Part shown: one piece after another, positions 1,174 to 51,412 of the stretch
How the letters are laid out: every line of letters starts with the position of its first letter
Position numbering within the stretch: position 1 is the stretch's first letter
Assembly (NCBI GenBank): GCA_964390495.1
Contig: CAYMIN010000008.1
Location: forward strand, 92,831-156,830
DNA length: 64,000 nucleotides
Source of the DNA: an uncultured Armatimonadia bacterium
GTDB lineage: Bacteria; Armatimonadota; Zipacnadia; Zipacnadales; UBA11051
Reading direction: 5' to 3'
Position numbers and translations under genes: made by a program
Notes under the pieces: model-generated
What the model was told of the DNA's origin: nothing
Databases searched by the model: none
What the model saw: the letters and a program-made list of their open reading frames with translations, nothing else

Positions 1174-1246
1174 ACAACACATTCCTGGACGACAGGCATC
1201 CCTGCCTGTCGCGACTTCTGGCAACGGCATGGACAGGCAGGGCACC
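1174..1246. repeat. Family-F interspersed double-hairpin element, copy 1 (cctggacgacaggcatccctgcctgtcg ... ggacaggcagggcaccc)
   Basis: Near-identical core to the copies at about 40703, 44130 and 51341. Contains the hairpin gacagg-catccctg-cctgtc. Confidence 0.7.
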
Positions 1247-1439
1247 CGTGCGCAGCATGGGTCCCCTGTCCTCCGGGTTTTTTGGGGGGACGGGAGCCAA
1301 GAGGCGCCGGATTGCACCAAGTGCAGTCCCGGCGTCGGCCGTCGCCTCAGTTCGCCAAATGTAACTCCTTCCCAACAATTCAAGAAATGTCTAATTGCGC
1401 CCCTACACCCTGGCAGTCGCCAGCGACGTGGTGAAAAGC

Positions 1440-4229
1440 ATGACAAAGCGCATATTGGTCATCTCCTTGTTGGTGCTGTTACTCGGCCTCAGCGGCTGTG
1501 GCCGACGTGGCATGGTGCGTTACAACCGCCAGAGCGATTTCTACACCCTGGGCGGGTTGCAGAGCGATTACACCTGGATTACCGATGTGGCCGACGGCTG
1601 GCGCACGACTATAGACCTGGAGGCCTCGGAGCTGCCTTCCTATGCCGACCTGGCGGCCTATCCGCTGGGCAATGGGGAGATCTTCGCCATCAATGGTCTG
1701 ATGGTTCCGCTTGGCACCCTGAGCAACACTGTCGGTCCTGGCTACCAGAAGTCCGGCGGCTTCTATGGCGCGATCATTCCGGCGGTGAGGGTGGCCGGCG
1801 CAGACGAAAACCTCCCCCAGCAGATGGTCGAATGGGTGCGCCAGGCTGGTGTAGTGCATACGGTGCGACGCAATGGCCGCATGGGCCTGCATATCTACGA
1901 CTGGGTCGCGCCCCGGCATAATTACTGGCACAGGCTGCTTATCGCCCAAAACCTTGGACAGGAACCGTTGCAGAATGTCGAGCTGATCCTGGCCATCAAC
2001 AATCCGGTCGAGGCAGCCGCCGGCGGTCGGCTTATCTGCACCCGGGCCGGCTCGCGGCTGACTCTTAGTGTCCTCGGCCGGGCCTTCGCCAAAGCCAAAG
2101 GCTACGAGGTCAACCTGCCCGAGGGCATCGAGGGTCTGCAACTGCTGACCGGCGTTGACGGCCTGGCTCATCTGGTCTGTCCGATCGGCACTATTGACAA
2201 GGGCCAGAGCGCCGGCAAGCTCTTCTATCTGGTGCTGGAGAAAAATGACCAGGAGACCCGTCCTGAGCAGTCGGCCTCGGCCATCGCGGACCCCGGCCTC
2301 GAAAGTTTGGTGGAGGCTTACGAGTACAACAGCGCCTGGCACAAGCAGGGCCTGGTCATTGGCACACCGGACCGCCGCCTCAACGATTTCATCGAGATCC
2401 AGAAGCACATTATCAAAGTCCAGCAGGCGGCCACTGGCGGCTTCGCCCCGATGGACAAATACACTTACACGTGGATCCGGGACAGCGTCGGGCCGGTCCG
2501 CTTCTGCCTCCAGGCCGGTTACTATGATGAGGTCAAGAAGTACCTCCGATACCAGTACATGGGCAATGCCAAAGCCGGCGAAATCCGGCTCAACCTGCCG
2601 CTCGACCTCGGAGAACCCCGCGACCTCGAAGACCCCGACTGGTCGCGCTATCCCGTCGAACGCGCCGAGGTGCCCAGCTACATCGTCCTGCAGCACTACT
2701 GGTACTATCTCCACACCGCCGATGCGGAGCTGATTGACAGGCACTGGAATTACCTCAAGCGCTGCATCTTCGGCCAGCAGATCAGCGAGCGCGGCACCCT
2801 CCCTTTCCACGGGGATGAGACCTATCGCTTCCCCGGCTATGAAGCCTTCAGACAGGGTCGGGATGTGCATGATTATGTCCAGCTTGAGTGCCAGTCGGCT
2901 GACTCGGCCTTTGAATTCGTCGCCGCCGCCGAGGCCATGGCCCAAATGGCGCGCGACCTCGACCGCTCCGAGGAGGTGGACGAGTTCACAGACATCGCTC
3001 GCCGGATTCGCCGCGCCACGGAGAAGTACTACTGGATGGGCGACCGTGGCTATTACGCGCCGGCGATGTCTGACTTCACCCAAGAGCGCCACCGCTACCC
3101 CTTCGCCACTATCAACCTGCGGCCGATCTGGATCGGCTATGCGCAACCCGATGCCCAACAGCGCTCGAACGTAACTAATTCGCTGAAGTACTTGTGGAAA
3201 GAGGGCGGCGGCGTGCGGGTCACGCCCGATTTCGGCTACTACACCACCATGGTGCCCGGCTTTGTGCTGTATAACCTGACCGAGATCGGGCACCCGTTGG
3301 CCGAGCACTGGGTGCAGCAGGTACTGGATATTGCCGAGGCCTCGGGCGGCTATGCCGAGATGAACACTCCGGAGGACCGCCCGGCCGAGGACATCTGGGG
3401 CCAGCACCGTTGTCGTCCCTGGGAGGGTGGTATCAACGCTCACGCCGTGGTCCACGCGTTCTTGCGCCCCCAGGTTGATGCCGTCAACAACCGCATCAGC
3501 CTGGCACCGCGGATTGCCCAGGACTGGCGGGTATTTGCGGCGGCCAATATACCCGTCGGCGAGAACCGCCTGGACCTGCGCATCTACGGTTCTCTGGGCA
3601 AGCGCATCTACGAGGTGACGGCTCAGGAGAGCGAGGATCCGCCAACTCTCGACCTCTATCTGGCTGTGCCGGGCCGCCGCAGTGTTGCCGTGGAGGGCCC
3701 TTACCGCGACTACGGGGGTCGGATTGTCAGCCGCAGCTATGACCAAAACGAGACGACCATTCACCTGGCCGGCATCAAGATGCCCTCCGCAGAGCAGATA
3801 CCGCTGGAGGTCACTTACGAGCCTTACACTGCGCCCGGCCATGGCCTGGGGACCGAGACCTTCCACTATGGTCCGGCCCAGGTCAACCGCCGCGCCGATA
3901 CGCTGCTCTTGACCTGGAACCCGGCCACCTACGAGCATTACCATAACCAGCTAGGCGACCGGCTGATGGCTCTGGACACCAAGATCCCGTGGCCGCCGAG
4001 CTACTTGCGCGGGCTGTTGCTACCGGAGGTCGGACGGGCGGGATTTACGAGGGTGCTGCTGGATGTTGACACTTATTCGGGCGGCTTCCGGCGGCCGGAC
4101 TTCTGGACCTCCGGCCGCGGCGGTCAACTGCTCAAGGAGTTTCAGGCCGTGGGTGGTAAGGTGGAAAAGGCGGAGAAAACCGACGAATTGCCGCCCAGCT
4201 ACCGCAACCTGCCTCGCGAGCAGAGCTGA
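1440..4229 (+). CDS. secreted lipoprotein, glycoside hydrolase family 15-like (glucoamylase/glucodextranase-type (alpha/alpha)6 barrel)
   Basis: ATG at 1440 gives a lipoprotein signal peptide (MTKRILVISLLVLLLGLSGC, lipobox LSGC). The motif YTWIRDS matches the GH15 YxWxRD signature. The 944-aa ORF starts 15 codons upstream of this ATG. Confidence 0.6.
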   Translation: MTKRILVISLLVLLLGLSGCGRRGMVRYNRQSDFYTLGGLQSDYTWITDVADGWRTTIDLEASELPSYADLAAYPLGNGEIFAINGLMVPLGTLSNTVGPGYQKSGGFYGAIIPAVRVAGADENLPQQMVEWVRQAGVVHTVRRNGRMGLHIYDWVAPRHNYWHRLLIAQNLGQEPLQNVELILAINNPVEAAAGGRLICTRAGSRLTLSVLGRAFAKAKGYEVNLPEGIEGLQLLTGVDGLAHLVCPIGTIDKGQSAGKLFYLVLEKNDQETRPEQSASAIADPGLESLVEAYEYNSAWHKQGLVIGTPDRRLNDFIEIQKHIIKVQQAATGGFAPMDKYTYTWIRDSVGPVRFCLQAGYYDEVKKYLRYQYMGNAKAGEIRLNLPLDLGEPRDLEDPDWSRYPVERAEVPSYIVLQHYWYYLHTADAELIDRHWNYLKRCIFGQQISERGTLPFHGDETYRFPGYEAFRQGRDVHDYVQLECQSADSAFEFVAAAEAMAQMARDLDRSEEVDEFTDIARRIRRATEKYYWMGDRGYYAPAMSDFTQERHRYPFATINLRPIWIGYAQPDAQQRSNVTNSLKYLWKEGGGVRVTPDFGYYTTMVPGFVLYNLTEIGHPLAEHWVQQVLDIAEASGGYAEMNTPEDRPAEDIWGQHRCRPWEGGINAHAVVHAFLRPQVDAVNNRISLAPRIAQDWRVFAAANIPVGENRLDLRIYGSLGKRIYEVTAQESEDPPTLDLYLAVPGRRSVAVEGPYRDYGGRIVSRSYDQNETTIHLAGIKMPSAEQIPLEVTYEPYTAPGHGLGTETFHYGPAQVNRRADTLLLTWNPATYEHYHNQLGDRLMALDTKIPWPPSYLRGLLLPEVGRAGFTRVLLDVDTYSGGFRRPDFWTSGRGGQLLKEFQAVGGKVEKAEKTDELPPSYRNLPREQS

Positions 4230-4246
4230 ACGGTGGGTGGCCGCTG

Positions 4247-5038
4247 CTATCTCACATAGATCACGCGCGTGCCCACGATTTGGTCGTGCCAACCGCGGTA
4301 CTCGCTATTGATCGCCACCGATAGAAAGAACAGGCTGCAGGTGCAGTTCTGCAGCATCAGCTTCACGACAATGCGCCCCAGCGCCAGACCGTAGCCGATC
4401 GGCCTGCCGTCGGTGCGCACTATCTTCATCCCCAGCGCCATCTTACCCAGCGTCGCCCCATACGTCCCGTTCATCAGCGTGAAATAGGCGACCTCAATCA
4501 GGGCCACCGGCAACTGCGCCAGTTGGAGAGCGACGCCGAACTGATCTGACTCGAAATCCAGCTCAATACCGGTCACCAGGAAGACTACGGCTATCAGCAA
4601 CCCCGAGGGGATTGCTAGGACGCAGCCGTCAATAATCAGCGCCGCCACTCGCGGCCAGAAGCCGGCGTTGTTGAACTGCTGCATGGGCGCTACCGGCTGG
4701 TATGGGGGCTGGTCCCGCGGAGCCGGCGGCGCTGGTGGAGGTGGTGGCGGAGGCGGAGGTGTAACTGGCTGCCCCGCGGTCACTTTCTCTGACGCTGGCT
4801 GCTCAAGCGGCGCCGGCTCGTCCAGTACGGAAGACAGGGGCACTGTCGGGCCGGTTGCCTGATATTCCGCCTCCGTCGGCTCCGGCACTTCAGGCGTCGG
4901 CGCCTCGGCGGTGGCCTCTCGCTGCGGCTTCGGCAGCACAGCCACACAGTGCGGGCAGACGATTGCGTCGCGGCTCACGATCCTCCCGCACTGTGGGCAT
5001 CGTCTCTCGGCTTCCGGCCCTTGTTGGTCCATCCGCAT
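4247..5038 (-). CDS. RDD-family membrane protein with N-terminal zinc-ribbon and a poly-proline linker
   Basis: CPQCG...CPHC zinc ribbon, a PPPPPPPPPAPPAP tract, and a C-terminal RDD-like TM domain (GATLGKMALGMKIV..). Confidence 0.6.
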   Translation of the reverse strand: MRMDQQGPEAERRCPQCGRIVSRDAIVCPHCVAVLPKPQREATAEAPTPEVPEPTEAEYQATGPTVPLSSVLDEPAPLEQPASEKVTAGQPVTPPPPPPPPPAPPAPRDQPPYQPVAPMQQFNNAGFWPRVAALIIDGCVLAIPSGLLIAVVFLVTGIELDFESDQFGVALQLAQLPVALIEVAYFTLMNGTYGATLGKMALGMKIVRTDGRPIGYGLALGRIVVKLMLQNCTCSLFFLSVAINSEYRGWHDQIVGTRVIYVR

Positions 5039-5067
5039 TCCCCCGACCTGGCCCGGCGGCAGCTAGT

Positions 5068-7158: not shown

Positions 7159-7409
7159 CGGGATTCCTCCAATTTCCATTCTTGCGTGGCTGTGAGAGCC
7201 TCCGGCCTCACTTTGCGGCGACACTACGGCCCGCTACGTGTCCTCCGGAGCCCGCAGGCGATGCATTTCAGCCACGGGATTATAATGCGCCATAGACAAG
7301 CCTTCTACTATTCCCCGCCCTGGCTCGCGAATCCTTTTTGTTAGCCAAAAATGTCCGGTTTGGGGTATTATAGTCATGTCGGCCGCCGCCAAAGGAGAAT
7401 CCAATCGGC

Positions 7410-8189: not shown

Positions 8190-8972
8190 ATGATTCCCAA
8201 GCTCCGGGCTATCAGCTTCCTAGCTTTGGTGGCGGTGGCTCTGCTGCCGGCGGCCGGCCTTGCGGAGCAGATCAGCCAGGCTAGTGCCCAACTGGTGCGC
8301 AACGCGGAGCAGGACCTCTCAGCCCAGCGCGCCGAGGCGGCGATAGAGAAGTTGCAGCAGGCCGCCGACATGGCCCCGGACTGGTACGTGCCGCCCGCGC
8401 GTCTGGCCGTGGCGTATCACGTTTGCGGGATGGAGACGGCGGCGCTGCAGCAGTATCTGTGTGTCCAGAGGCTGTCATTTGAGCGCTACGATCCCGACAG
8501 CGGATGCAGCGAACAGGTGCGGCAGTTGCTAGCCGAGGCCGAGGCTTACATGAGTCTGTTGGTGAATCAGACGCGGCGGGAGGCTGGTCGCAGGCTCTTG
8601 TACACTCACCCGCAGATGGCGATTGTGGGACGCCACCACGCCCTGGAGATGCGGGATGAGGGCTACTTTTCGCACGATTCGCCGACCCCTGCGCGGCGCA
8701 CGGTAGTGGAGCGGTTCCAGTTGATATTTGGCTTTCGTCCGAGGGTGTTGGGAGAGAACTTAGCACGGCGTTGGCGGCGGGGTCCGGGCTATTCGCTGAG
8801 CTTGGCGAAGATTCATGACAGCTACGAGGACCTGCTCAAGAGTCACGGCCATCGCAAGACGATCATGATGCCAGAGTTGACGCATTTCGGGGTAGGGATT
8901 GCGGTTGATCAGCGGGGCAATTATTGGGTATCACAAGTCTTCGCCGACATGACCGGCCATCCCGAGTATTGA
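8190..8972 (+). CDS. secreted CAP (SCP/PR-1-like) domain protein
   Basis: Signal peptide (ISFLALVAVALLPAAGLA). C-terminal CAP-domain motifs (GHHALEM.., YFSHDSP, GENL, HFGVGIAVD..YWVSQVFA). Its start abuts the stop of the activase gene. Confidence 0.6.
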   Translation: MIPKLRAISFLALVAVALLPAAGLAEQISQASAQLVRNAEQDLSAQRAEAAIEKLQQAADMAPDWYVPPARLAVAYHVCGMETAALQQYLCVQRLSFERYDPDSGCSEQVRQLLAEAEAYMSLLVNQTRREAGRRLLYTHPQMAIVGRHHALEMRDEGYFSHDSPTPARRTVVERFQLIFGFRPRVLGENLARRWRRGPGYSLSLAKIHDSYEDLLKSHGHRKTIMMPELTHFGVGIAVDQRGNYWVSQVFADMTGHPEY

Positions 8973-9018
8973 GCCCAAGCATCTGGGGCACCACGCAGTC
9001 CGGCGTCGAAGGCCGCTG

Positions 9019-9146
9019 TCGTTGCCGTAGCCTTCAGGAGGGGCCGCAGGCGAGGCGGAAGCGCTAGCTTCCGCCGAGAATCCGGCCCAGTCGTTGTCGT
9101 TGCCCCTCTCCCTGTGGGAGAGGGGAGGGGTGATAGCAGCCTTGCC
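9019..9146. repeat. composite interspersed repeat, modules X-B-A (ccgttgcc..ggaggggccgca | ggcggaagc.tagcttccgccgagaatccggcccag | cgttgtcgttgCCCCTCTCCCtgtgGGAGAGGGG..gccttgcc)
   Basis: Homologous at roughly 85-90% to the element at 18279-18406. Each module contains a short palindrome. Confidence 0.75.
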
Positions 9147-9190
9147 CAGCCCAAACCTGCCCAACCGATTACCATGCTGGAGGCAACCAC

Positions 9191-9769: not shown

Positions 9770-9773
9770 GCCG

Positions 9774-13804: not shown

Positions 13805-16536
13805 CTGCCTTGAGAATGCCTCAGCCGACCTTGTCATTTTTCTTCGCGTCAGCGCTTCTCATCGGCCTGCTGCTTGCCGCTTGGGGGCAGGCTGCAGCCG
13901 CGCCCGCTCTCGACCCGGTATTCGTCAACTACCTGGCTCAGCTCGATTACAACCACGCCCAGTTCGTTGATGCCGGTGTCATAGATTTCTCCTATCTCCA
14001 TGGCCGTGAGGCGGGCCGGCGCGGCTTCCTATTCACCGGCACCGACGGCCATTTCTATTTCGAGGACGGCACTCGGGGCAGATTCTGGGGCCTGAATGTC
14101 GCCAAAGATTCGGTCTTTCAGCCACCGGAGCGCATTGACCAGGCCGTCGCCGCCATCTCCCGGGCCGGCTTCAACCTCGTCCGCATCCATCATATTGACG
14201 GCGTGGAGGGGCTGCTGCCTCTGGAGCGTGCCGGTGATCCCCAGCGCCTTGACCCCGAGAAGCTCGACTGTGTTGACTACTGGATATTCCGGCTGAAGCA
14301 GGCCGGCATCTATGTCTATCTCGACTTGCTCGATTTCCGGACCTTCAGCGAGACCGAGGGTGTTACCAATGCCGCTGCGCTGGGCCGTGCCGCCAAGCCT
14401 TACGCCGTCTTCGACAATACCCTCATCGAGCTGCAGCAGCAGTATGCCCGCCGGCTGCTCATCGAGCACGTCAATCCCTACACCGGTCTGACCTACGCCC
14501 AGGACCCGGCCATCGCCATGATCGAGATCTGCGACGAAAACGGCCTCTACTTCGCCCGCAAGCGCTGGGGCGATCTGGTCGAGCCGTACCGCAGCCAACT
14601 GCGCCGCCAGTTCAACCAGTGGCTGATCGAGCGCTACGGCGACACCCCGACCTTGGCCGAGGCCTGGACTGATGTCGAGGGCCATGAGGGGCTGCTGGCC
14701 GGCGAAAGCCTGGAGGAAGGCACGGTCTGGCTGTTCCCGGAGGCCGGGATGCCGGCCAAGTTCCCGGCGGCCCAGGCCGGCGAGAGTCAGCGCCTGCAGC
14801 GTGGCCGTGCCGCCGACCGCCGCCTGTTCATCAACAGCGTACATGCCGAGTATCTGCGCCGCCTCAGCACCTATCTGCGCCGTCGTGGCGTCCAGGTCCC
14901 GATCACGGCCGTGCTCGACTTCAACCACGTCGCCGACATGCGCACCGTGGCTGACCAGCTCGATTTCATCGGCACCAATTTCTACTACGACCATCCCTCC
15001 TGGCGCGCCGGCAACGAGTGGCATCTGCCGGCCTTCCATGAGGACCTCAATCCGCTGGCTGATACCCGCACCGAGACCTTCATCCCTCGCACGCTGGTCA
15101 GTCGCGTATGGGGCCGCGCCTCGGTAGTGCGCGAATGGAACGTGTGCTGGCCGAATCGTCACCGCGCTGCCGGTATGGTCGAGGCCGCCGCCTACAGCGC
15201 CCTCCAGGACCTCGACGCGGTGATACTCTTCACCTATGACCTGCTCGATGCCAAGCACCGCGTGGAGTTTTTTGATGTCCGCCGCGATCCCACGCGCTGG
15301 GGCCTGATGGGACTTTGCGCTCGTATCTTCCTGCAGGGCGACCTGCGACCGGCTCGCTACCGCGTCGCGATGGGCTTCTCCAAAGTGGACAGCTTCTATC
15401 CCACCTGGCAGCCGATGCCCACGGAGGCCTACAAGCTGGGATGGGTCTGTGGATTCCACACGCTCTTTTTCGACGAGAAGGCTCCCGCCGGCGGTCCGGA
15501 CTTGCTGATGGCCTCGGGCCGCTCCGCCGGCGGCGTCTATGACCGCGACAATACGCTCATCTGCAGCAACTGGGACGCCGAGGACCTGCTCGACCACCAG
15601 CGCGACCAAAGCCTCGAGCACAAGAGCGGCTATCAGGTCGCGACCGTTCCCGGAGATTATGTTTATTACACCTTCGGCGGCACCATGTTCTCCGCCGGCC
15701 ACAAGGACCGCTTGCAGACCGATCCCGCCTTCCTGGTGGCGGATGTCAAGGCCCAGGACTTGCGCCCTATCGGCATTGATGCCGCCGGCGAAGGCTGTGT
15801 CGGCTTTCGCGATGTGCGCCGCAACAATTATGTATTCCGACGGCTCACGGCTCATCAGAAGCTGCGGGTGGCGCTGGATGCCCTCGGCCAGATCTTCGGC
15901 GCACCCATTTCCCACGATTACGTCAACACCGGTGTGTACAGGTCCGATACTGGCCAGATTACTCGCGACCTCAACGCCGGCTTGCTGAGGGTTGATGCCC
16001 CTTGTTTGCACGCGGTGGCGGGCGCTCTCAGCAACTCCGCCGGGGCCAAGACTTCGCAGTTGCAGGTGACCACTGCCTCCCCAACCGGCGCGGTTATCTG
16101 GGCAAGTCTTGACGGCAAGTCGCCTACGGCGTCGCAGCATTGGGTACTCAAGATGGCGACGGTGGCGGCCAATACCGGCCAGAGCATGAGGCTGCATTAC
16201 TCGAACGCTGAGAAGACCGTCTATGTGCTGGAGCAGCTGGGTGACGCGCCGATTACGACGCTGGCGGAGAAGACCTCGCGGCCCACGGTGGTATCCCTGG
16301 CCGGGCGCGAGGTCTTGCGCATCTATCTGCAAAACGGCACCTGGGAGTTGGTCTATGAGCAGAGCCGCTATTACCTCTCATGCGACACCGCCGGTGTGCA
16401 GGTGGAGCTCCCCGGCTTAGGGCCGACGGTCAGCGTGGCTGCGGTAACTGATGGTGCGCCCGCATCGCCGCAGTCACAGCCTCAGCCCTTCGCCTATCCG
16501 CAGGCCTTCACCTTAGTACTGGTAACTCGCCCTTGA
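13798..16536 (+). CDS. large secreted TIM-barrel glycoside hydrolase-like protein (clan GH-A / GH5-like), 912 aa
   Basis: Signal peptide (FFFASALLIGLLLAAWGQAAAAPA). N-terminal region FWGLNV..GFNLVRIHH resembles GH-A TIM barrels. Overlaps the upstream gene by 7 nt. Confidence 0.45.
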   Translation: MVAALRMPQPTLSFFFASALLIGLLLAAWGQAAAAPALDPVFVNYLAQLDYNHAQFVDAGVIDFSYLHGREAGRRGFLFTGTDGHFYFEDGTRGRFWGLNVAKDSVFQPPERIDQAVAAISRAGFNLVRIHHIDGVEGLLPLERAGDPQRLDPEKLDCVDYWIFRLKQAGIYVYLDLLDFRTFSETEGVTNAAALGRAAKPYAVFDNTLIELQQQYARRLLIEHVNPYTGLTYAQDPAIAMIEICDENGLYFARKRWGDLVEPYRSQLRRQFNQWLIERYGDTPTLAEAWTDVEGHEGLLAGESLEEGTVWLFPEAGMPAKFPAAQAGESQRLQRGRAADRRLFINSVHAEYLRRLSTYLRRRGVQVPITAVLDFNHVADMRTVADQLDFIGTNFYYDHPSWRAGNEWHLPAFHEDLNPLADTRTETFIPRTLVSRVWGRASVVREWNVCWPNRHRAAGMVEAAAYSALQDLDAVILFTYDLLDAKHRVEFFDVRRDPTRWGLMGLCARIFLQGDLRPARYRVAMGFSKVDSFYPTWQPMPTEAYKLGWVCGFHTLFFDEKAPAGGPDLLMASGRSAGGVYDRDNTLICSNWDAEDLLDHQRDQSLEHKSGYQVATVPGDYVYYTFGGTMFSAGHKDRLQTDPAFLVADVKAQDLRPIGIDAAGEGCVGFRDVRRNNYVFRRLTAHQKLRVALDALGQIFGAPISHDYVNTGVYRSDTGQITRDLNAGLLRVDAPCLHAVAGALSNSAGAKTSQLQVTTASPTGAVIWASLDGKSPTASQHWVLKMATVAANTGQSMRLHYSNAEKTVYVLEQLGDAPITTLAEKTSRPTVVSLAGREVLRIYLQNGTWELVYEQSRYYLSCDTAGVQVELPGLGPTVSVAAVTDGAPASPQSQPQPFAYPQAFTLVLVTRP

Positions 16537-18024: not shown

Positions 18025-18133
18025 CAAGACTGTTGCGTAGCGCTACGCGGCCGGCGACTGTGATGGCGAGTCCAGTCAGACCTATAATCCATAATCGCAG
18101 CGGTCGGGTGTTTGGCCCACCTATCCCCCTTTT

Positions 18134-18406
18134 GCTTCCCCCTTCCCGGGTACCCACGCCAAAGGCGTGGGTGAGGAAGGGGGTTAGGGGGTTAGGAAAC
18201 ATAATTGCGTGGGTCGGGCAAGCCGAAAGGCAACGTCTCAGCCTTTTGGCGCGTAGGTCGGGCTTTCCAGCCCGACGCCGTTGCCTTTGAGTCGTTTGGA
18301 GGGGCCGCATACGAGGCGGAAGCTTAGCTTCCGCCGAGAATCCGGCCCAGCCGTTGTCGTTGTCCCCTCTCCCTGGGAGAGGGCCAGGGTGAGGGCCGCC
18401 GTTGCC
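18134..18406. repeat. repeat cluster: module C (cccccttcccgggtaCCCACGCCaaagGCGTGGGtgaggaaggggg), module D (gcgtagGTCGGGCtttccaGCCCGACgcc), then composite X-B-A
   Basis: C recurs at 20480 and (degenerate) 37600. D recurs at 20558/20598 and 27951. X-B-A recurs at 9019. Confidence 0.75.
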
Positions 18407-20457: not shown

Positions 20458-20479
20458 CTACTCACCGAACCCCGTTTTG

Positions 20480-20670
20480 ATTCCCCCTTCCCGGGTACCC
20501 ACGCCGAAGGCGTGGGTGAGGAAGGGGGCTAGGCGGTTAGGCCGCATTATTCATGAACGCGTAGGTCGGGCATCTCTAGCTTGCATTGTTCGCGAAGGCG
20601 TAGGTCGGGCTTTCTAGCCCGACGCCGTTACCAGTCACGGACCAGCCAGGCTAGAAAGCCTGGCCTACGT
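20480..20670. repeat. repeat cluster: module C, tandem module D (one partial, one full), then module E hairpin (ccaggctagaaagcctgg)
   Basis: Module C here is about 90% identical to the copy at 18134. The cluster occupies most of the 387-bp spacer between the two EamA paralogues. Confidence 0.7.
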
Positions 20671-27804: not shown

Positions 27805-27950
27805 TGCTTCTGCTCTTTCATGCACCTTGATAGGCATTTACTGACTTGTTGGTATTGAGGCTTGTACTATGGTTTACACATCTCAGCAGTTGCCCCGTAG
27901 TCCGTGCCCCCCGCATATCATCCCGTAGCTCGGGCATCCCAGCACCCTCC

Positions 27951-28050
27951 GCGTAGTTCGGGCTTTCCAGCCCGACAGCCGTTGCCGTTGCTGCTTGCCG
28001 TTATGCCTCTCCCTGTGGGAGAGGGCTAGGGTCAGGGCTGCCGTTGCCGC
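27951..28050. repeat. modules D + A (cgcgtagttcGGGCtttccaGCCCgacagccgttgcc | gttatgCCTCTCCCtgtgGGAGAGGGctagggtcagggctgccgttgcc)
   Basis: Same module order as inside the cluster at 18248-18406. Confidence 0.7.
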
Positions 28051-40485: not shown

Positions 40486-40702
40486 CTCCTATGTCCCGGC
40501 GCAGCCTCTGCCTGCCGACAGCGACCGTCGCCGCCTACGAATACGCGCCCAACGGGCTCGTGCCTAGTCCTATCTTCGCCGCGATTGGCTCCTGTCCCTT
40601 CCCCTTTGCGAGTATTTCCCCTACCATGTGACTGCTCAGTTCAGCGCGCTAGCGCAGAGGACATGCAAAAAACAGATGGCGCCTCGCCCCTAATGCTCTG
40701 TT

Positions 40703-40781
40703 CTGGAGGGCAGGCATCCCTGTCTGCCCATGCCCTTAGCGTGTCCGCAGACCGCGACAGGCTAGGAAGCCTGCCGTCCCG
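40703..40781. repeat. Family-F element, variant copy (GGGCAGgcatccctgtCTGCCC ... gacaggctaggaagcctgccgtccc)
   Basis: Shares the ggcatccctg and gacaggctgggaagcctgtcc cores with the other F copies. Confidence 0.55.
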
Positions 40782-40865
40782 GAACCCGAGCCGGAAAGCC
40801 GGTGACACCGCGCCGTGCACCACATCTGCGGCCTCATGCCGATGGTGTGACGCTGACTACATATC

Positions 40866-41534
40866 TCATTCCATCTGCACATCACTGACGCCGTCCAGCT
40901 CCTCCAGCTCCCGGCACAACTCGGCCTGCGCGGCCTTATCGGCCAGTTGCGCGCGGATCGAGAGCATCCGCGGCTGGTGACGCCTCACCAGCCCGTATTT
41001 TAGGCTCACGATCTTGCCCCCGTGCCGGTTCAGCAGTGCCGTGACATCGGCGATCATGTCCCGCTCCGGATCGGTAGCCAGGTTGAACTGCACTCTCCCA
41101 CTACGGCGAATTACGTCTTCCTCCAGCCAGTCCACCGCCACCAGGGTGAACAGGCCGATGATGGTGGCGAAGATCGCCGCCGGGTACCAAGCGAGCCCGC
41201 ACGCCACCCCGATGGCCGCGACCATCCACAGCGAAGCTGCTGTCGTCAGGCCGCGAACCACGTTGCCATGCCGCATGATCGTGCCTGCGCCGATGAAGCC
41301 GATGCCGGTCACCACCCCGGCCGCCACGCGCGACACGTCGCCATCGCCTTCGGCGGCTGCACCCGAGATGATGGCAAATAGTGCTGAGGCCACCGCCACC
41401 AGAATATGGGTGCGCAGTCCCGCCGGCCGCTGCTGCCATTCCCGTTCCAGACCCAGGAGACCGCCCAGCACAAACGCCACGCTCATGCGTAGGGCGATCG
41501 TGCCGTATGAATCGATTGCCAGTTCCATGCTCAC
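40866..41534 (-). CDS. mgtC: MgtC/SapB-family membrane protein
   Basis: MgtC N-terminal TM domain (LGLEREW) and a C-terminal ACT-like domain. Confidence 0.75.
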   Translation of the reverse strand: MSMELAIDSYGTIALRMSVAFVLGGLLGLEREWQQRPAGLRTHILVAVASALFAIISGAAAEGDGDVSRVAAGVVTGIGFIGAGTIMRHGNVVRGLTTAASLWMVAAIGVACGLAWYPAAIFATIIGLFTLVAVDWLEEDVIRRSGRVQFNLATDPERDMIADVTALLNRHGGKIVSLKYGLVRRHQPRMLSIRAQLADKAAQAELCRELEELDGVSDVQME

Positions 41535-43049: not shown

Positions 43050-43985
43050 ATGGAAGATTTCAGCAGCCCCACCGCAGCCCTAATTGCAGAGATCGAGAAG
43101 GTCATCGTCGGCAAGCGCGAGGCCATTGAGCTGGTGATAATCGGCCTGCTTTGCCGCGGCCATATCCTCATCGAGGACCTCCCCGGCCTAGGGAAGACCA
43201 TGCTGGCCCGCGCCCTGGCCAAGGCCGTGGACTGCGATTTCCGTCGCATCCAGTTCACACCTGACCTTCTGCCTGCCGACGTCACCGGTACGACCGTTTA
43301 CGAGAAGGGAGACGGGAAGTTCACTTTCCGCCCCGGGCCGCTGTTTGCCAGCCTGGTACTGGCCGATGAGATTAACCGCGCTACTCCCAAGTCGCAGTCG
43401 GCGCTGCTGGAGAGCATGGAGGAGTTCCAGGTCACGGTGGACGGCATCAGCCACGAGCTGCCCAAGCCTTTCTTCGTCATCGCCACCGAGAACCCGATCG
43501 AGTACGAGGGCACCTATCCGCTGCCGGAGGCACAGCTTGACCGCTTCTTAATGAAGGTCCACATCGGCTATCCCACGCCGGAGCAGGAGGTTGATATTCT
43601 CCAGCGCCAGGTCATGGTTCATCCGATTGAGAACGTCAGGCCAGTGGTGGCGGCCGCGCAGGTGCTGGCGATGCAGCAGGCCCTGCGCGCGGTTCACATA
43701 GATGAGTCGCTACAGCGCTATGTTGTGGACGTGGTGAATCACAGTCGCGGGCACGAGACGGTGGCTTTGGGGGCCAGTCCGCGCGGCTCACTGGCGATGA
43801 TGCGTTGCAGCCAGGGCGTGGCCTTCCTGGCCGGTCGCGATTATGTAGTCCCGGACGATGTCAAGCGTGTCACTGAACCGGCGCTATCTCACCGTCTCAC
43901 CATCAAGCCGGACCATCGCATGCGCGGGGTGACTCCGGGCAGCGTCATCGAGCAGATACTGCAGTCGGTCGCGGTGCCGGTCTAG
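43050..43985 (+). CDS. MoxR-family AAA+ ATPase
   Basis: Walker A GLPGLGKT, Walker B LLADEINR, and sensor region. Start taken at MEDFSS. Confidence 0.8.
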   Translation: MEDFSSPTAALIAEIEKVIVGKREAIELVIIGLLCRGHILIEDLPGLGKTMLARALAKAVDCDFRRIQFTPDLLPADVTGTTVYEKGDGKFTFRPGPLFASLVLADEINRATPKSQSALLESMEEFQVTVDGISHELPKPFFVIATENPIEYEGTYPLPEAQLDRFLMKVHIGYPTPEQEVDILQRQVMVHPIENVRPVVAAAQVLAMQQALRAVHIDESLQRYVVDVVNHSRGHETVALGASPRGSLAMMRCSQGVAFLAGRDYVVPDDVKRVTEPALSHRLTIKPDHRMRGVTPGSVIEQILQSVAVPV

Positions 43986-44129
43986 ACGGGTGTCGAGAGC
44001 CCGTTGCTCTCAAAGCCTTTCCTTGTCCAGCTTGGTGACCCTTGCTGTCCAGGCCCTGGCGAGCATACACACAAGTTCTTGGTGGCCGGTAATTCAGACA
44101 CCACAGACTCTGGCACCAGTCCCAAGCTA

Positions 44130-44203
44130 CAATACTTTCCTGGACGACAGGCATCCTTGCCTGTCGAAGGGCGTGGACAGGCTGGGAAGCCTGTCCTCCA
44201 ACG
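44130..44203. repeat. Family-F element, copy 3 (cctggacgacaggcatccttgcctgtcgaagggcgtggacaggctgggaagcctgtcctcc)
   Basis: The most complete copy; it has both hairpins. Confidence 0.7.
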
Positions 44204-44634
44204 GAACGAAGGGGGAAAACGGAACAGGCGCTTCTCCCTGGCCCCATCCATGAATTCCGTGGAGCTAGGAAGCCCGTGGTTCGGGCATCCACAATAGTCA
44301 TGAAGATTCTTAATGGCAACACAAGCCCAGCATTCAGCAGGGCCCTTGGCTTGCGCAGTCGCGTGCTGTTGGAGGGGCGGTGTCGAACGTCGGACGCTGT
44401 TTGTCCGACGTGAGGCCGGCCCGCGCACGACCCTGACTCCCGAGCTCGGCACGGCCAGACGCCCAACGGCTGGGCCAGCCTTGTGAGCTTTGCTTGGCAA
44501 AGCCCACTGCGACAGGCCCCTCCATCACGGCTGACGACATTCCAGTCGCACACTAGAGCCTGAATTGACCGAAATCTGCATAACTGCAGTTTCAGCCCGA
44601 CGCGGCTAGCAGCTTTCTGCGAAAGGCATTACCT

Positions 44635-45843: not shown

Positions 45844-48013
45844 TACTGCCAAGATGGCGCGCAATTGGCCGCTGTTCGCCGGAGCTTTGGTTCTGGCCTC
45901 CGGCGCCGCGGCTGCCCTAACCGTTACGACGCGGTCCCCCGCTTTCGGCCTGTTCATCCACAGCCTGATCATAGTCGGCCTCGGGACCAGCTTCGTCGCC
46001 GCCGGCCTCGGCAAGCGCACCACCGCGCTGGGGCTTGTCGTGATTGCTACGGGCTTGGTGGTGCTGGTCTTGCGCGAGGAGCTCGGTCCCTGGACCGACT
46101 TGCTTTTCCCTCTCGATCTGCAGACGGTGGAGGAGAGCACTGTCGCGGTATTGGGCGGCTGGGTGCTGGCCGGCTTGTGCTTCATCCAGGGCCGGCGCTA
46201 CAGTACCGTCTTCATCACCGCCATCGGTATGGCTATTCTGGGGCTGATGGCGACCCTCAATCTCAATGCCGAGTTCCTGGTCTGCTTCTGGGTCTATACC
46301 TTCGGCGTTGTCTTCACCTGGGGCTACGATCATCTGCTGCGGGTGGCTGCCAAGTCCCACATACATGTCGAGACCTCGGCTGTCTGGCGGGAATGGCTGC
46401 GCTGGCACCTCTCGGCCTCAGCGCTGCTGCTGGTGATCGTGATGGTGCTGGCCACCGGTGGCGGCTCGCTGCTGTATGCGGTCTCGCCTAACATTTTCGA
46501 CCGGATGTCGAGTCAAGTCCATCGCCTGCCTGCCGCCCTTCGCAGCCTGGCCTTCCGCACCTGCATGGATGAGGAGTTCCGCGTCGGCACCGGCCCGATC
46601 GAGCTACCCCGTACCATCGCCTTCATGGTCACAGCCCAGCATCCGACGCTGTGGCGCGCGCAGGCCTACGACCACTATCAAGGCGCCGGCTGGACCAAAC
46701 GTAGCGAGAGCTACATACGGATGCAGCACGGCAGCTACATGTCCTATCGCTATGCGGTGCCCTCGGCCTCGGGCCTCCCCGGTACCCGCAACTACCAGGA
46801 GTTTACCTTCCCCACCGGGCCACTGCGCGGCTTCATCCCGGCCGCGGCTACGCCGGTCGAAATCAAGCTCTACGGCCAGGCGGATGATGCGCCACCTCTT
46901 TACCCGGGCGGGCCGCGGCTGCAGCCGGTTGAGGTTGATAGCTACGGCTGCCTGCGGATCAGCCCCACCTGGGCGGCCCGAGGTTATTGGGGGCAACTGG
47001 AGACCGAGCCGAAAAGGCATTACGAGGTGATCTCGATAATGCCGCCGACGGCGGCCGAGACACTGCGCGGCCGCGGCGATGACTATTCGCCGAACATGGT
47101 TGAGACCTATATCAAGCAGGTTCCGGTGGCGGCTCAAGCGCATCTGAACGAGTTGGTCAGCGACACTGTCGCCGGCCTTCAAGACCCCTACGACCGCGTG
47201 GTTGCCCTTCGCGAGATGATCTCCCAGCGCTGCCTCTACTCTTTGAAGGCACCGGCGGTGCCGCGAGGCAAGGACGCTGCGGTCCATTTTCTGCTGAGCA
47301 GCAAGCGCGGCGCTTGCGACCTGTTCGCCACCGCGATGGCGGTGACCGCGCGGCTGGCCGGCGTACCAGCGCGCGTCGCCGTGGGCTTCCAGCTCGGCGA
47401 GTACGATCCGGTGACCGAAGCCATCGTGGTTCGGGACAGCGACGCCCACGCTTGGGCCGAGATCTTCTTCCCCGACATCGGCTGGGTGCCGTTTGACGTG
47501 CAGGCGGCGCAAGTTTACGATGAGCAGACCTGGCTATCTCTGCTTGCCACCGGCCATGCCCGGCTCGCGGTGGCCAAGGTCTTGCGGCTGCTGGTGCCGC
47601 TGGTGCTGCTGGCAGTGATCGGCTATGCGGCGCTCTCGGGCGTCTATGACCTGCGACGGCTGCCGGCGTTGTGGCGCAGACGCCGTGCCCCGGGCCCGAC
47701 TGGCAGCCTCAGCCGCGATTACCAGCGCCTGTGCCGCCAGCTTGCGCGGCGTGCCCGCCTTGGCCCGGTTGAGGCCATGACGCCCCGCCAGGTCGTCGAG
47801 GCGGCACTGGCTAACCTTTCCGGCTCCCAGGCCCTCAAACAGAGGCTTCGCCAACTCAATGAAGAATTCTACAGAGTCAGATTTGGCGCCGATTCGCCCA
47901 AGCAGCCGCTCGATTACCTGGCCGCCCAGGTGAGCAAACTGCGCAAACGGCTACGCGAATTCAAGTACAAGCCGCGCCGCTATTCCGAGCGCCCGGAAAG
48001 CCGGTCCCAATGA
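45830..48013 (+). CDS. transglutaminase-like (TGc) domain membrane protein
   Basis: Multiple N-terminal TM helices. Transglutaminase-core Cys/His/Asp motifs RGACDLFA, DAHAWAEIFF, GWVPFD. Start overlaps the DUF58 stop by 14 nt. Confidence 0.7.
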   Translation: MLRLDTAKMARNWPLFAGALVLASGAAAALTVTTRSPAFGLFIHSLIIVGLGTSFVAAGLGKRTTALGLVVIATGLVVLVLREELGPWTDLLFPLDLQTVEESTVAVLGGWVLAGLCFIQGRRYSTVFITAIGMAILGLMATLNLNAEFLVCFWVYTFGVVFTWGYDHLLRVAAKSHIHVETSAVWREWLRWHLSASALLLVIVMVLATGGGSLLYAVSPNIFDRMSSQVHRLPAALRSLAFRTCMDEEFRVGTGPIELPRTIAFMVTAQHPTLWRAQAYDHYQGAGWTKRSESYIRMQHGSYMSYRYAVPSASGLPGTRNYQEFTFPTGPLRGFIPAAATPVEIKLYGQADDAPPLYPGGPRLQPVEVDSYGCLRISPTWAARGYWGQLETEPKRHYEVISIMPPTAAETLRGRGDDYSPNMVETYIKQVPVAAQAHLNELVSDTVAGLQDPYDRVVALREMISQRCLYSLKAPAVPRGKDAAVHFLLSSKRGACDLFATAMAVTARLAGVPARVAVGFQLGEYDPVTEAIVVRDSDAHAWAEIFFPDIGWVPFDVQAAQVYDEQTWLSLLATGHARLAVAKVLRLLVPLVLLAVIGYAALSGVYDLRRLPALWRRRRAPGPTGSLSRDYQRLCRQLARRARLGPVEAMTPRQVVEAALANLSGSQALKQRLRQLNEEFYRVRFGADSPKQPLDYLAAQVSKLRKRLREFKYKPRRYSERPESRSQ

Positions 48014-49095
48014 GCCAAAACCCCGCCGCACAGATCGCGGACAAAGCTCTTTTCATAGTCCACGGCGACTCGGAGGTCCTCAAGTCGCGCGCCGTCAAGG
48101 CCATCATTGATGAGCGGCTGCCCGCGGCCGACCGCGAGTTCGGCCTCACCGAGCTGCAAGTGCGCGAGGTGGAGCTGGAGCAGATCACTAGTGCTTTTGT
48201 CTCCGGCTCGCTCTTTGCCAGCCAGCAGGTGGTGCTGCTGCGGGACCTCGACGAAATGCGCAAGACCGACCAGCAGGCGCTGGTGCCGGCCCTCGAAGGC
48301 CTCGGCCCGAGTATCACCGTCGTAATGACCGCAACGCCGGCGCCTCGCGGCAAACCCACCGAACCTAATCTCAGCGCGCCGCTGGTCAAGCTCGTCAAAG
48401 CCTCGGGCCGCATCATTGACTGCAACACCCCGGCCTATCTCGACTGGAAAGACGAACTCACGCCCTGGGTGAGAGCCGAGGCACAGCGCCATGACAAGGG
48501 CTTCGGCGACGGGGCGCTGCAGTTGCTGATTGATCTGGTCGGAGCCAACTGCGACCGGCTCGCCAACGAGATCGCGAAGCTGGCGATATACGTGGACGAG
48601 CAGCCGGAGATTAGCGGGGCCGACGTGCGCGCGGTCGTCTCGCCCGCTCAGGACCAGGACATTTTCGGCCTCACCGACGCCATTGGCAAGCGCGATGCGG
48701 CAGCGGCTCTGGCGGCCCTGCCCGCCCTGCTGCCCGCCCATGCCAAAAGCGGCGAAGGCATCCGCGTGCTAGCCATGATCTCCCGGCATTTGCGCCTGCT
48801 GTGGCAGACGCGGCATCTGCTCAGAAACGGGGTCAGCCTGCTGTCGGTGCAGGACTGCCCGGAAGAGACAGTCGCGCAGTTGCCCCAGCAGCAGAACATA
48901 TTCGACGCGGTTCGCGGCCGGAAGTTCCTGGCGCGCAACTTCACAGAGCAGGCCAAGAGCTTCAGCGATGGCCAGCTCGCCCGCGCGATAGTCGAGGTAT
49001 TCAGCGCCGATATGGCCCTGAAGGGACAATCCGACCGCGAAATGGATGACCGCATGTTGCTGGAGACGCTGGTGGTCGCTCTGTGCCGGCTCTAG
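48010..49095 (+). CDS. holA: DNA polymerase III delta subunit
   Basis: Length ~360 aa and delta-subunit N-terminal pattern (LFIVHGDSEVL, QQVVLLRDLDE). ATGA overlap with the transglutaminase-like gene. Confidence 0.6.
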   Translation: MSQNPAAQIADKALFIVHGDSEVLKSRAVKAIIDERLPAADREFGLTELQVREVELEQITSAFVSGSLFASQQVVLLRDLDEMRKTDQQALVPALEGLGPSITVVMTATPAPRGKPTEPNLSAPLVKLVKASGRIIDCNTPAYLDWKDELTPWVRAEAQRHDKGFGDGALQLLIDLVGANCDRLANEIAKLAIYVDEQPEISGADVRAVVSPAQDQDIFGLTDAIGKRDAAAALAALPALLPAHAKSGEGIRVLAMISRHLRLLWQTRHLLRNGVSLLSVQDCPEETVAQLPQQQNIFDAVRGRKFLARNFTEQAKSFSDGQLARAIVEVFSADMALKGQSDREMDDRMLLETLVVALCRL

Positions 49096-49316
49096 GCCTG
49101 ACTGCTCGTCAATGCGCAGTTCGGCCTGCCCTGATCCCTGGGTAAGCCAAGATCTCAGCCAGCGGCCAGCGGGGGCGAGGCTGCACCGCAAATAGACTCC
49201 CTCACTAGTAGAGTCGACGCAACTCCGGCGTTTTACAAGACACAACGCGTAAATCTTTGCGAACTTTTGATGATGTTATTGCGACGGCGGGAATTGGGCG
49301 CTATGGATAGGCGATC

Positions 49317-51275
49317 ATGGGTCTGGTGATGGCATTAGCCATAACTGGGGCGGCGCTGCTTTTCGGGATGCAGCTTCTACAGTGGCTGCGTGTTGCCCCG
49401 TCCGGGACCTGGGCACATGCGCTGGCCGGCTTCGGCCTCGGTATCGTCATCATCGCCTACGCGATCCTGCTGCTCGGCCTGTTTGCGGTCCTCAAGGCCG
49501 TGTGGCTGGCTGCGATACTGGCAGTCATGCTAGCGTGCGGCAGCAGCCAGGCGCGGACGGTCATGCCGGCGATCGGCGCGGCCCGCAGCTACCTCAGCGC
49601 TCTCGCGCGACGGCCGGCCCATTTCGTGGTCCTGATTTTCATCGGCTTGTGGATGCTGCTGACGCTCGGCTGCGCGCTGATGCCGCCGGATGGCGGCGAC
49701 TGGGACGGCCTCAGCCAGCACCTGGCCCAGGCCTGGATGTACGCCCACGAGGGCTGCGTGCGCCCGCTGTGGTTCGACCACCACTCCCAGTTCCCCGGTA
49801 CCATGCAGATGCTCTACACGGCGGGGGAGCTGGTTGACGGCTATTTCACTGCCCGCCTGCTGCACTGGCTGATGGGGATGTTGAGCGTGGTATGGGCGGT
49901 GCTAATCGCCCAGCGCTTCCTGAGTGAGCGTGCCGGCAGTAACGTGGGCCTGTGGACCGCCTTCATCATGGTGTCCACACCGATCTTCACCTGGCTCACC
50001 GGAGTGGCCTATGTGGACCTGGGCGCGACTTTTTTCGCGTTAGGGGCGCTGTACTTTTTCCTCGATTGGGCGCTGAGCCGCGCGCCCAAGGCTCTGGCGC
50101 TCACCGGCCTGATGCTGGCCGGCGGGATGACCGTGAAGATGCAGGGCCTGGCCCTGGCCGGCGTCATCATGCTCGCCGCAGCGATACTCACCGTCTTGCA
50201 AAGGCGTGGTTGGCGGGAGTGGGGCCTCGCCTGCGGGCTGGTCGTGCTTCTCGGTGGGCCGTGGTATCTGAAGAGCTATCTAATCACCGGCAACCCCGTC
50301 TATCCCTTCGCCTACGAGCTTTTCGGCGGCAAGCAGTGGACCCAGGAGCAGGCCGACTTCTACGAGCACCATCAGATGGCCTTCGGCTATGGCGAGATTC
50401 CCGACCGCGCGCAACTGGCGCAGATGTCATTCTGGCGCAAGCGCTTTTTAGGGCCGCGCGAGCCGTACAAGTGGCTGATCGGGCCGGTGCTGCTCACCAT
50501 CCGCCCTTGGGACTTCGCGGTTGATCGGAGTCTGATAGCCCAGGCGCTGCTTTTGCACTGGATCGGGCCGCTGTACCTGCCGCTGGTGCTGCTGTTGCTG
50601 GTGGGGAAGCGGCCGCCGGCTGTGGGACTGGTGATGTGGCTGCTGCTGCCGCTGTGGCTGTGGTGGTTCTTCTCGATGCAATACACCCGCTACCTGCTAC
50701 CCTCACTGGTGCTGTTGGCTCCATTAGCGGGTTACTCTATGGCCCAGCTTTTCTCCCGCAGCGGGCCGGTTCGCGCCGCCGCCGGTACGGTGGCCTCCCT
50801 ATGGGCTGTCTGCGCGCTGGTGCCGCTGGTGCTCAGTTTCATCATCGCGTGGCCGATTATCAGTGGCCGGGCCACCTGGGAGCAGTACCTCAACATCAAG
50901 CTGGATGTCTATGAACCGAGCCGGTATATCGCCCGCTATCTGCCGGAAGATGCCGTCATAGCCACCTACGGGGAGCCGCGCTACTACTATTTCGAGCGGC
51001 CGGCGATCTGGGCCGACCCCGGCCACAGCCGCCTGTTCACCTATGAGACCATGCAGACGCCGCAGGAGTTGATCGCCCGCTATCGGGAGCTGGGCATCAC
51101 CCACGTGCTGGTCAATCGAGTGCATGTTGACCTAGATAACCCCGACGACTGGGTGATAGCACTGCTGCGAGGAGGTTTCGAGGAGGGGAGCCTGCAGCAG
51201 ATGGGGTCTTTTTCGCGGCGGCAGTACGTGCTGCTGCGGGTGGAATACGGGGCAGAGGCGGAGGGTGGCTCATAG
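49317..51275 (+). CDS. polytopic membrane protein, GT-C-fold glycosyltransferase-like (PMT/ArnT family)
   Basis: About 12 predicted TM helices with intervening loops; overall architecture resembles family 39/83 glycosyltransferases. Confidence 0.45.
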   Translation: MGLVMALAITGAALLFGMQLLQWLRVAPSGTWAHALAGFGLGIVIIAYAILLLGLFAVLKAVWLAAILAVMLACGSSQARTVMPAIGAARSYLSALARRPAHFVVLIFIGLWMLLTLGCALMPPDGGDWDGLSQHLAQAWMYAHEGCVRPLWFDHHSQFPGTMQMLYTAGELVDGYFTARLLHWLMGMLSVVWAVLIAQRFLSERAGSNVGLWTAFIMVSTPIFTWLTGVAYVDLGATFFALGALYFFLDWALSRAPKALALTGLMLAGGMTVKMQGLALAGVIMLAAAILTVLQRRGWREWGLACGLVVLLGGPWYLKSYLITGNPVYPFAYELFGGKQWTQEQADFYEHHQMAFGYGEIPDRAQLAQMSFWRKRFLGPREPYKWLIGPVLLTIRPWDFAVDRSLIAQALLLHWIGPLYLPLVLLLLVGKRPPAVGLVMWLLLPLWLWWFFSMQYTRYLLPSLVLLAPLAGYSMAQLFSRSGPVRAAAGTVASLWAVCALVPLVLSFIIAWPIISGRATWEQYLNIKLDVYEPSRYIARYLPEDAVIATYGEPRYYYFERPAIWADPGHSRLFTYETMQTPQELIARYRELGITHVLVNRVHVDLDNPDDWVIALLRGGFEEGSLQQMGSFSRRQYVLLRVEYGAEAEGGS

Positions 51276-51340
51276 GCGGGCACCGGTTGCAGTTGAGACA
51301 AGGCACCACGCTAAGGTATAATGACGGCAGGAGCGAAACA

Positions 51341-51412
51341 CCATACCAGCCAGGACGACAGGCATCCTTGGTTGTCGAGAACTGCGGACAGGCTGGGAAG
51401 CCTATCCTCCTG
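51341..51412. repeat. Family-F element, copy 4 (ccaggacgacaggcatccttggttgtcgagaactgcggacaggctgggaagcctatcctcc)
   Basis: About 85% identical to the copy at 44130. Confidence 0.7.

Follow-up and report, generated by a model that had tools for sequence, protein, structure and literature searches.

Repetitive extragenic palindromes (REPs) with a GTAG tag, and the head-to-head dimers that they form, have been surveyed by Di Nocera et al. (2013; PMC3733652), and REPINs (REP doublets forming hairpins), together with their RAYTs (REP-associated tyrosine transposases), were described by Bertels and Rainey (2011; PMC3116915, PMC3337134). The text of the 2013 survey reports GTAG repeats in Proteobacteria, Cyanobacteria, Chloroflexi and the Planctomycetes-Verrucomicrobia-Chlamydiae (PVC) group, and does not mention Armatimonadota (PMC3733652). 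REP dimers, tags and REPtrons are understood here as defined in PMC3733652, REPIN and RAYT as defined in PMC3337134 and PMC5581495, and the REPtron arrangement, in which a RAYT gene is flanked by the same repeats, as described in PMC3733652 and PMC5581495. We analysed a 64-kb stretch of DNA from an uncultured bacterium of the phylum Armatimonadota (contig CAYMIN010000008.1; hereafter the window), which contains four double-hairpin copies of an intergenic repeat, designated Family F. This repeat is very likely to be a family of REP doublets, i.e. REPIN-like head-to-head heterodimers of the GTAG-tagged REP superfamily, with the variant tag GGAG or GGAC.

Family F shares with GTAG-REPs and REPINs its construction from imperfect palindromes (20-40 nt class) bearing an unpaired terminal tag, its extragenic location, the organisation of most of its dimers as tag-outside inverted heterodimers with conserved spacers, the presence of compensatory stem variants and a patchy distribution between related genomes. 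The same repeats also flank a single Y1/HUH RAYT gene, in a REPtron, here on related contigs rather than in the window. Unlike GTAG-REPs, Family F carries the tag GGAG or GGAC (within CTGGAsGA), and its host, an uncultured member of Armatimonadota, sets it apart from the GTAG-REPs surveyed. In Escherichia coli, bacterial interspersed mosaic elements (BIMEs) combine REP arms with other short conserved motifs to form longer mosaic intergenic units. The 190-330-nt composites of Family F, with their recurring GCCGTTGC-type linkers, are similar in this respect, but their sequences are different, and no binding of integration host factor (IHF) or gyrase is known for Family F. Bacterial miniature inverted-repeat transposable elements (MITEs), such as Nezha, NEMIS/Correia and ERIC, are likewise small, non-autonomous, intergenic, foldable and variably present; however, MITEs have DDE-derived terminal inverted repeats and target-site duplications, neither of which was found for Family F (for the duplication, at one site). 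Chloroflexi-1, a two-hairpin RNA motif in Rfam, consists of two similar adjacent stem-loops in intergenic DNA; unlike such two-hairpin motifs, the copies of Family F match no Rfam model.

Anatomy and copy population of Family F

The 12-mer CAGGCATCCYTG occurs exactly four times in the window, at 1193, 40711, 44148 and 51359, always on the plus strand, and the 21-mer of the second hairpin gave four matches with no more than three mismatches, versus 0.01 expected. The earlier note on this DNA, made from its letters, had placed double-hairpin elements at 1174, 40703, 44130 and 51341, and these counts confirm all four. Three of the 21-mer matches (40756, 44176 and 51387) are second hairpins, and the fourth is the first hairpin of copy 1 on the minus strand, which matches because the two arms are near reverse complements. 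A repeat search of the window recovered the family independently (D1 at 1174/44129/51340 and D9 at 1185/40703/44140/51351). The region was found at 100% identity in five independent assemblies (ENA, JGI and Logan) and is therefore not an assembly artefact.

The arms follow the consensus CTGGA-S-GA-CAGGC-loop-GCCTG-TC-S', an imperfect palindrome of about 25 nt bearing a short 5' tag that is left unpaired. Two arm types can be told apart by their loops, ATCCYT and TTCCYAG; the tag, CTGGA-G/C, reads GGAG or GGAC, at a position occupied by GTAG, GTGG or GTAC in other lineages. In all four window copies the two arms are inverted, head to head, with the tags outside and a short spacer of subtype-conserved sequence between them, and the stored gene calls uphold the earlier view that every doublet is intergenic. 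Folded as single-stranded DNA, each arm formed a stem of 9 bp capped by a loop of 4 nt, with z-scores between -3.1 and -5.7. For copy 2, the preferred fold was a single long hairpin formed by pairing between the left and right arms, and in copy 4 the outer flanks CCAGGA/TCCTGG closed a three-way junction. The features of the four copies are as follows.

1108..1392, plus strand: composite intergenic repeat of about 285 nt, holding copy 1
1184..1212, plus strand: copy 1 left arm, CCTGGACGA-CAGGC-ATCCCT-GCCTG-TCG, a hairpin with a 9-bp stem
1231..1274, minus strand: copy 1 right arm, disrupted by an insertion of about 19 nt in the loop region
40625..40821, plus strand: composite unit of about 190 nt, holding copy 2, absent from the syntenic relatives L253 and L255
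40703..40729, plus strand: copy 2 left arm, CTGGAGG-GCAGGC-ATCCCT-GTCTGC-CC, with a compensated A-T to G-C stem change
40755..40782, minus strand: copy 2 right arm, reverse complement GGACGGCAGGCTTCCTAGCCTGTCG
44128..44212, plus strand: copy 3, complete Type I unit, with the flanks ACAATACTnTCC and AACGGAAyG
44139..44166, plus strand: copy 3 left arm
44175..44199, minus strand: copy 3 right arm, GGACAGGCTGGGAAGCCTGTCCTCC on the plus strand
51336..51414, plus strand: copy 4, decaying Type I unit; the left stem has one mismatch and one G-T pair, the right stem one mismatch

The second hairpin, thought in the earlier note to be common to all four copies, is present in copies 2, 3 and 4. Copy 1 is without the ggacaggctgggaagcctgtcc hairpin: its right arm consists of GGACAGGCAGGG, the insert of about 19 nt and CCCCTGTCC, and alignment showed the intact form, GGACAGGCAGGGATGCCTGTCC, in the loci L157 and L136. 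An open reading frame (ORF) of about 75 codons running through copy 1 was rejected, as related copies differ by the 19-nt indel.

The size of about 72 bp given in the earlier note had to be revised, as the repeated unit is longer: copy 1 belongs to a unit of about 285 nt and copy 2 to one of about 190 nt, and the units of copies 3 and 4 measure about 80-100 nt. Across 285 nt, the repeat at 1108-1392 shares 87% identity with L153; its identity to L157 and L136 is 76-78%, and at all three loci the neighbouring genes are unrelated. Copies 3 and 4 are units of Type I, in which the left flank ACAATACTnTCC and the right flank AACGGAAyG are both conserved, and the unit of copy 3 is 85-92% identical to L174, L192, L212 and L137 over 79-100 nt. 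The unit of copy 2 is part of a repeat of about 330 nt in Zipacnadia-like genomes. In none of the composite units are the ends inverted repeats.

In these Zipacnadia-like genomes, a Type II doublet occupies the centre of the repeat of about 330 nt (GGTAACTGCTCAGCTTGGGG ... GGTGAGTAATTA), which is highly conserved and multi-copy and contains a third arm, GGAGGACAGGCGTCCTCGCCTGT. This repeat was observed at L017, L047, L048, L055, L057, L135, L141, L163, L178, L181, L208, L237, L239 and L256, lying just upstream of gene starts in L141 (a prepilin-like gene) and L181. Short motifs, GCCGTTGC and CGTTGYC, form linkers between hairpin modules both in the window (9071-9105 and 27965-28000) and beside RAYT genes (L131 7550-7620 and L247 3600-3700), and the recurrence of these linkers suggests a shared mosaic grammar, by analogy with BIMEs.

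Further copies of the repeat were recovered well beyond the window: metagenome contigs carry its arms, singly or as doublets, in more than 140 distinct elements. The arm-specific pattern scan of these contigs gave 143 distinct elements at 119 loci, comprising 103 single arms, 29 tag-outside inverted dimers, a single tag-inside inverted dimer and a few tandem arrangements; singlets, dimers and trimers were all found, beside unrelated genes. Most dimers are heterodimers of a GGAC-type and a GGAG-type arm, and their spacings are discrete, at 32-34, 45 or 51 nt, the overall range of arm spacing being 32-97 nt. Near-identical doublet subfamilies with conserved spacers and flanks were represented by 10 elements of Type I and 17 of Type II. 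The same repeat is present in a metagenome-assembled genome (MAG) of Candidatus Zipacnadia, a class of Armatimonadota. The large glycoside-hydrolase-like protein encoded in the window has homologues that carry the labels Armatimonadota and Candidatus Zipacnadales.

The hairpin is maintained in the arms. Across 87 distinct arms, 95% of stem cells were paired, versus 29-38% in slid controls, and six of the nine stem pairs had changed on both sides; compensatory changes in the stems are clear. Of 500 shuffles, a single one attained this number of doubly changed pairs, and the other four measures were reached by none. Recurrent compensated variants included GGGCAGGC..GCCTGCCC and GACAGCC..GGCTGTC; examples are the replacement of A-T by G-C at stem position 3, also seen in copy 2 of the window, and that of G-C by C-G at position 7. 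The bases concerned were fixed by the search pattern, and these variants were therefore not created by the search.

RAYT genes flanked by Family F arms, and a core hairpin found across labelled phyla

RAYT genes were sought by tblastn with an E. coli RayT sequence as the seed, the matches then being confirmed by Pfam, NCBIfam and PDB. The seed identified Y1 transposase genes beside hairpins at two loci of the first scan; at one locus, L033 (Poribacteria), arrays of tagged hairpins that have the GGCAGGGATGCC core, as in Family F, lie on either side of the RAYT gene. On contigs related to the window, RAYT genes are flanked by F arms themselves. Three such genes have inverted F-arm flanks (L131/L242, L251 and L252; 100%, 81% and 73% identity, respectively). 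The RAYT-like gene of L131 lies between inverted arms (TTGGAGGACAGGCATCCTTGCCTGTCAATGCCGTTG ... gene ... reverse complement), and both loop types of F arm, some of them joined in complete F heterodimers, are found in the flanks of the L251 and L252 genes. The L131 protein scored 89.6 bits on NF047646 (REP-associated tyrosine transposase; cutoff 80), a model that the proteins of L251 and L252 also pass, and its only PDB match was the structure of E. coli TnpA-REP (4ER8), in an alignment where both the HUH and the Y..NP motifs correspond. Members of this cluster are labelled “REP element-mobilizing transposase RayT” by JGI. RAYTs at 53-59% identity are flanked by GTAGGACAGGCTTCCAGCCTGTC (L247), GTACGACAGGCGTCCTCGCCTGTC (L244) and GTAGGTCGGATCTCCAGATCCGAC (L249, labelled Armatimonadota), and among the more distant RAYTs of the same clade the flanking hairpins are GTAG- or GTAC-tagged, with the same or a related stem. 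The hairpin GTAGGTCGGATCTCCAGATCCGAC flanking the L249 gene closely resembles a module of the window, GTAGGTCGGGCTTTCCAGCCCGAC.

The core of the Family F hairpin has a wider distribution. The first pattern applied to contigs (CAGGCATCCYTG..GACAGGC) was too permissive, 80 of the 116 listed loci being chance matches, but true palindromes were found at 36 of these 116 loci, versus about 0.5 expected by chance. Among the matches listed, a 16-nt core hairpin, CAGGC-ATCCyT-GCCTG, with a 5' tag such as GTAG, GTGG or GGATGA, occurs in at least nine labelled phyla. The titles of the records concerned name Armatimonadota, Planctomycetota, Verrucomicrobiota (including Kiritimatiellae), Acidobacteriota and Cyanobacteria (Calothrix), together with Chloroflexia, Aquificaceae, Sumerlaeota, Poribacteria and a Clostridia-labelled MAG. 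The loci with this core hairpin include L004, L006, L024, L025, L033, L036, L053, L066, L074, L079, L081, L106 and L117, among others. In L033 (Poribacteria) and L081 (the Clostridia-labelled MAG) the core hairpin flanks Y1_Tnp genes, and the RAYTs that it flanks in L033, L081 and the Armatimonadota-type contigs share only 33-38% identity.

Turnover, proposed mobilisation and rival explanations

Family F has been gained or lost between syntenic relatives. The relatives compared were L253 (84% identity), L255 and L257 (both from MAG GCA_964549395.1) and L256 (83% identity). GCA_964549395.1 has the same gene order as the window, with 63-72% protein identity, but its intergenic gaps measure about 0, 179, 16 and 110 nt, versus 409, 389, 649 and 289 nt in the window, and no F arm or GTAG hairpin was found in 30 kb of it. 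L253 is without the unit of copy 2, and comparison of the junctions indicated that about 17 nt are replaced by about 190 nt in the window. No clear target-site duplication of the kind that the earlier note had proposed looking for was seen at this empty site, the only resolvable one, the moxR-DUF58 and rfbF sites in the relatives being too diverged or occupied by other repeats for such a search. At the copy-1 site, L256 carries a different F-containing unit, which begins right after the same ...ACGCGCAT. Presence and absence among these relatives thus place the turnover of Family F on a timescale of genus-level divergence.

A palindromic module, D5 (CCCCCTTCCC...GGGAAGGGGG), was observed at 18118-18206 and 20463-20551 in the window and at 3390-3450 in L253, where it takes the place of Family F in the moxR-DUF58 gap. 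Different repeats have therefore settled at one and the same intergenic site in sister lineages.

From the established biochemistry of RAYTs and of the IS200-IS605 insertion sequences, each arm would be expected to fold into a hairpin in single-stranded DNA. A RAYT, as an HUH/Y1 transposase, would recognise the hairpin together with its tag, cut beside the hairpin and rejoin the DNA, and this action would copy the doublet and the surrounding mosaic units into other intergenic sites, without target duplication. By analogy with these systems, we infer that Family F transposes, and a RAYT in this particular genome would presumably be the enzyme that moves it.

Several observations weigh against the assignment of Family F to REPIN-like doublets of the GTAG superfamily. 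The doublets are embedded in longer conserved units of 190-330 nt, the remaining parts of which are unexplained. Near-identical doublets recur as families, which would suit the doublet as the replicating unit, but 103 of the 143 elements were scored as single arms and the conserved unit often extends beyond the doublet. The pattern-based collection of copies inflates conservation. The tag is GGAG or GGAC and not strictly GTAG. The REPtron arrangement was found on L131/L242, L251 and L252 only, i.e. in relatives, and tblastn with eight RAYT queries detected no RAYT gene in the 64-kb window. The F-flanked RAYT contig L242 has a GC content of 59%, versus 63% for the window, and a tetranucleotide correlation of 0.946, versus 0.97-0.985 for other loci; judging from this composition and from shared repeat modules, it probably belongs to a related genome and not to that of the window. 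The RAYT homologues P0002, P0003, P0004, P0008 and P0020 come from other samples. Concerning the tag, degenerate forms have been documented for some GTAG-REP families (PMC3733652), and Family F is thus considered a variant, with no strict match to GTAG.

Three other explanations of the repeat were weighed. The earlier note had proposed a MITE or a small structured RNA element, and the part of this proposal that holds is that the repeat is small and non-autonomous, forms hairpins and comes and goes between relatives. A classical MITE would be a deletion derivative of a DDE insertion sequence, mobilised in trans via its terminal inverted repeats and leaving target-site duplications. The small size, intergenic location, inverted-repeat build and presence or absence between relatives would all suit such an element, but at the only clean empty site the replacement of about 17 nt by about 190 nt left no clear direct duplication, the longer units have no inverted repeats at their ends, and the arms are self-complementary tagged hairpins that also occur alone (103 of 143 elements). 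Furthermore, the only transposase genes seen flanked by the arms encode Y1/HUH RAYTs, and the fetched loci showed no DDE insertion sequence that could be the parent, although no systematic search for one was made. A classical MITE is, on this evidence, very unlikely. A role as intrinsic terminators, or as paired operators for a regulator that binds dyads, would account for G+C-rich hairpins in intergenic DNA, for the TTTTTT that follows copy 1 and for the separation of the two dyads of copies 3 and 4 by about three helical turns. However, a terminator scan reported none of the four copies, three of the four are followed by no T-run, the spacing of the arms varies from 32 to 97 nt, and the copy number and the unrelated neighbouring genes speak against a regulon; we consider this explanation extremely improbable.

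If Family F were a structured RNA, acting as a cis-regulatory leader or as a small RNA, the hairpins would be its product and the copies would be under selection for RNA structure. The compensatory changes, and many single stem changes compatible with G-U pairing, would be accommodated by this explanation, as would the orientation of three of the four window copies, which is that of both flanking genes, and the position of copy 4, whose start lies about 18 nt past a strong promoter-like site upstream of rfbF.

51293..51322, plus strand: sigma-70-like promoter match TTGAGA-18-TATAAT (11/12), upstream of rfbF; context, outside the repeat

The TATAAT of this site is kept in the syntenic relative L255 (63% identity; about 14955-14975). 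Conversely, copy 2 is antisense to both of its neighbours. It had been described as upstream of mgtC, but this gene is on the minus strand (40866-41528, stored gene calls), and the copy lies downstream of the mgtC stop and upstream of the CBM9 gene. Orientation was also mixed in the wider sample, in which a crude ORF caller gave five elements in the same direction as both flanking ORFs, four opposite to both and three mixed. The neighbouring genes are unrelated, syntenic relatives with the same genes lack the copies, and a Y1 transposase acting on single-stranded DNA would lead one to expect the hairpin covariation just as much. Rfam gave no match at the gathering score over the whole window and, at E values up to 10 around copies 1 and 3, returned only chance-level eukaryotic models. 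A dedicated RNA therefore appears quite unlikely.

From its position relative to the promoter match, copy 4 probably lies at the 5' end of the rfbF transcript, as the first structure in its leader, and Family F may have secondary effects on host mRNA. Beyond its assignment to REP doublets, the family could reflect either an ancient or horizontally spreading RAYT-REP partnership, with a recognition code fixed across phyla, or the co-option of F doublets, copy 4 for example, as elements of mRNA 5' ends; this broader proposal seems to us rather unlikely.

Neighbouring repeats and significance

Other hairpin repeats are present in the window. GTAG-tagged hairpin families, e.g. GTAGGTCGGGCTTTCCAGCCCGAC, were observed at 18253-18276, 20600-20668, 27925-27985, 1051-1080 and 53437-53460, and include the following head-to-head dimer.

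20600..20668, no strand assigned: REP dimer with canonical GTAG tags, GTAGGTCGGGCTTTCTAGCCCGAC ... GCCAGGCTAGAAAGCCTGGCCTAC, a tag-outside heterodimer

These hairpins are probably part of the modules designated A to D in the earlier note, and would belong to the same REP superfamily as Family F. That note had stated that Family F never occurs together with these modules and had taken it to be of independent origin. The first statement fails outside the window and the second found no support: the GTAG hairpin at 1051-1080 lies beside copy 1, F arms and modules occur together in related loci, the modules include GTAG-tagged hairpins of the same design, and in L249 a RAYT of the same clade is flanked by them.

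Much of the gap between moxR and the DUF58 gene is filled by a second, unrelated repeat (window 44366-44600), which is 74% identical over 239 nt to L235 7163-7399, with shorter matches in L212, L166, L227, L226 and L199; in L212, a repeat of this type adjoins a Type I F element. In the public record, a gene of 202 amino acids without a Pfam match (43945-44553, minus strand) spans this gap and overlaps copy 3. This gene call is probably spurious, because the region is absent from the syntenic relatives, in which the gaps are 115 and 16 nt. In L255, the relative with the 16-nt gap, the ribosome-binding region (8396-8416) reads GGAGGACAGGC, the 11-mer that the tag and 5' half-stem form in an F arm. 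This match may be a coincidence, but GGAGGA, the tag of the arm, is itself a perfect Shine-Dalgarno sequence.

REP/REPIN-RAYT systems have been described mainly in Proteobacteria, with scattered occurrences in Cyanobacteria, Chloroflexi and the PVC group, according to record titles and the literature. The reading of Family F as REP doublets would assign a conspicuous repeat of uncultured Armatimonadota to this class, adding a variant-tag family to it with no change to the major picture. It would also explain the unusually long intergenic gaps of the window and mark the likely spurious gene of 202 amino acids. Repeats of this kind break assemblies, and two of the RAYT contigs are shorter than 1 kb. 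The core hairpin shared across phyla may, in turn, be usable for studies of substrate recognition by RAYTs.

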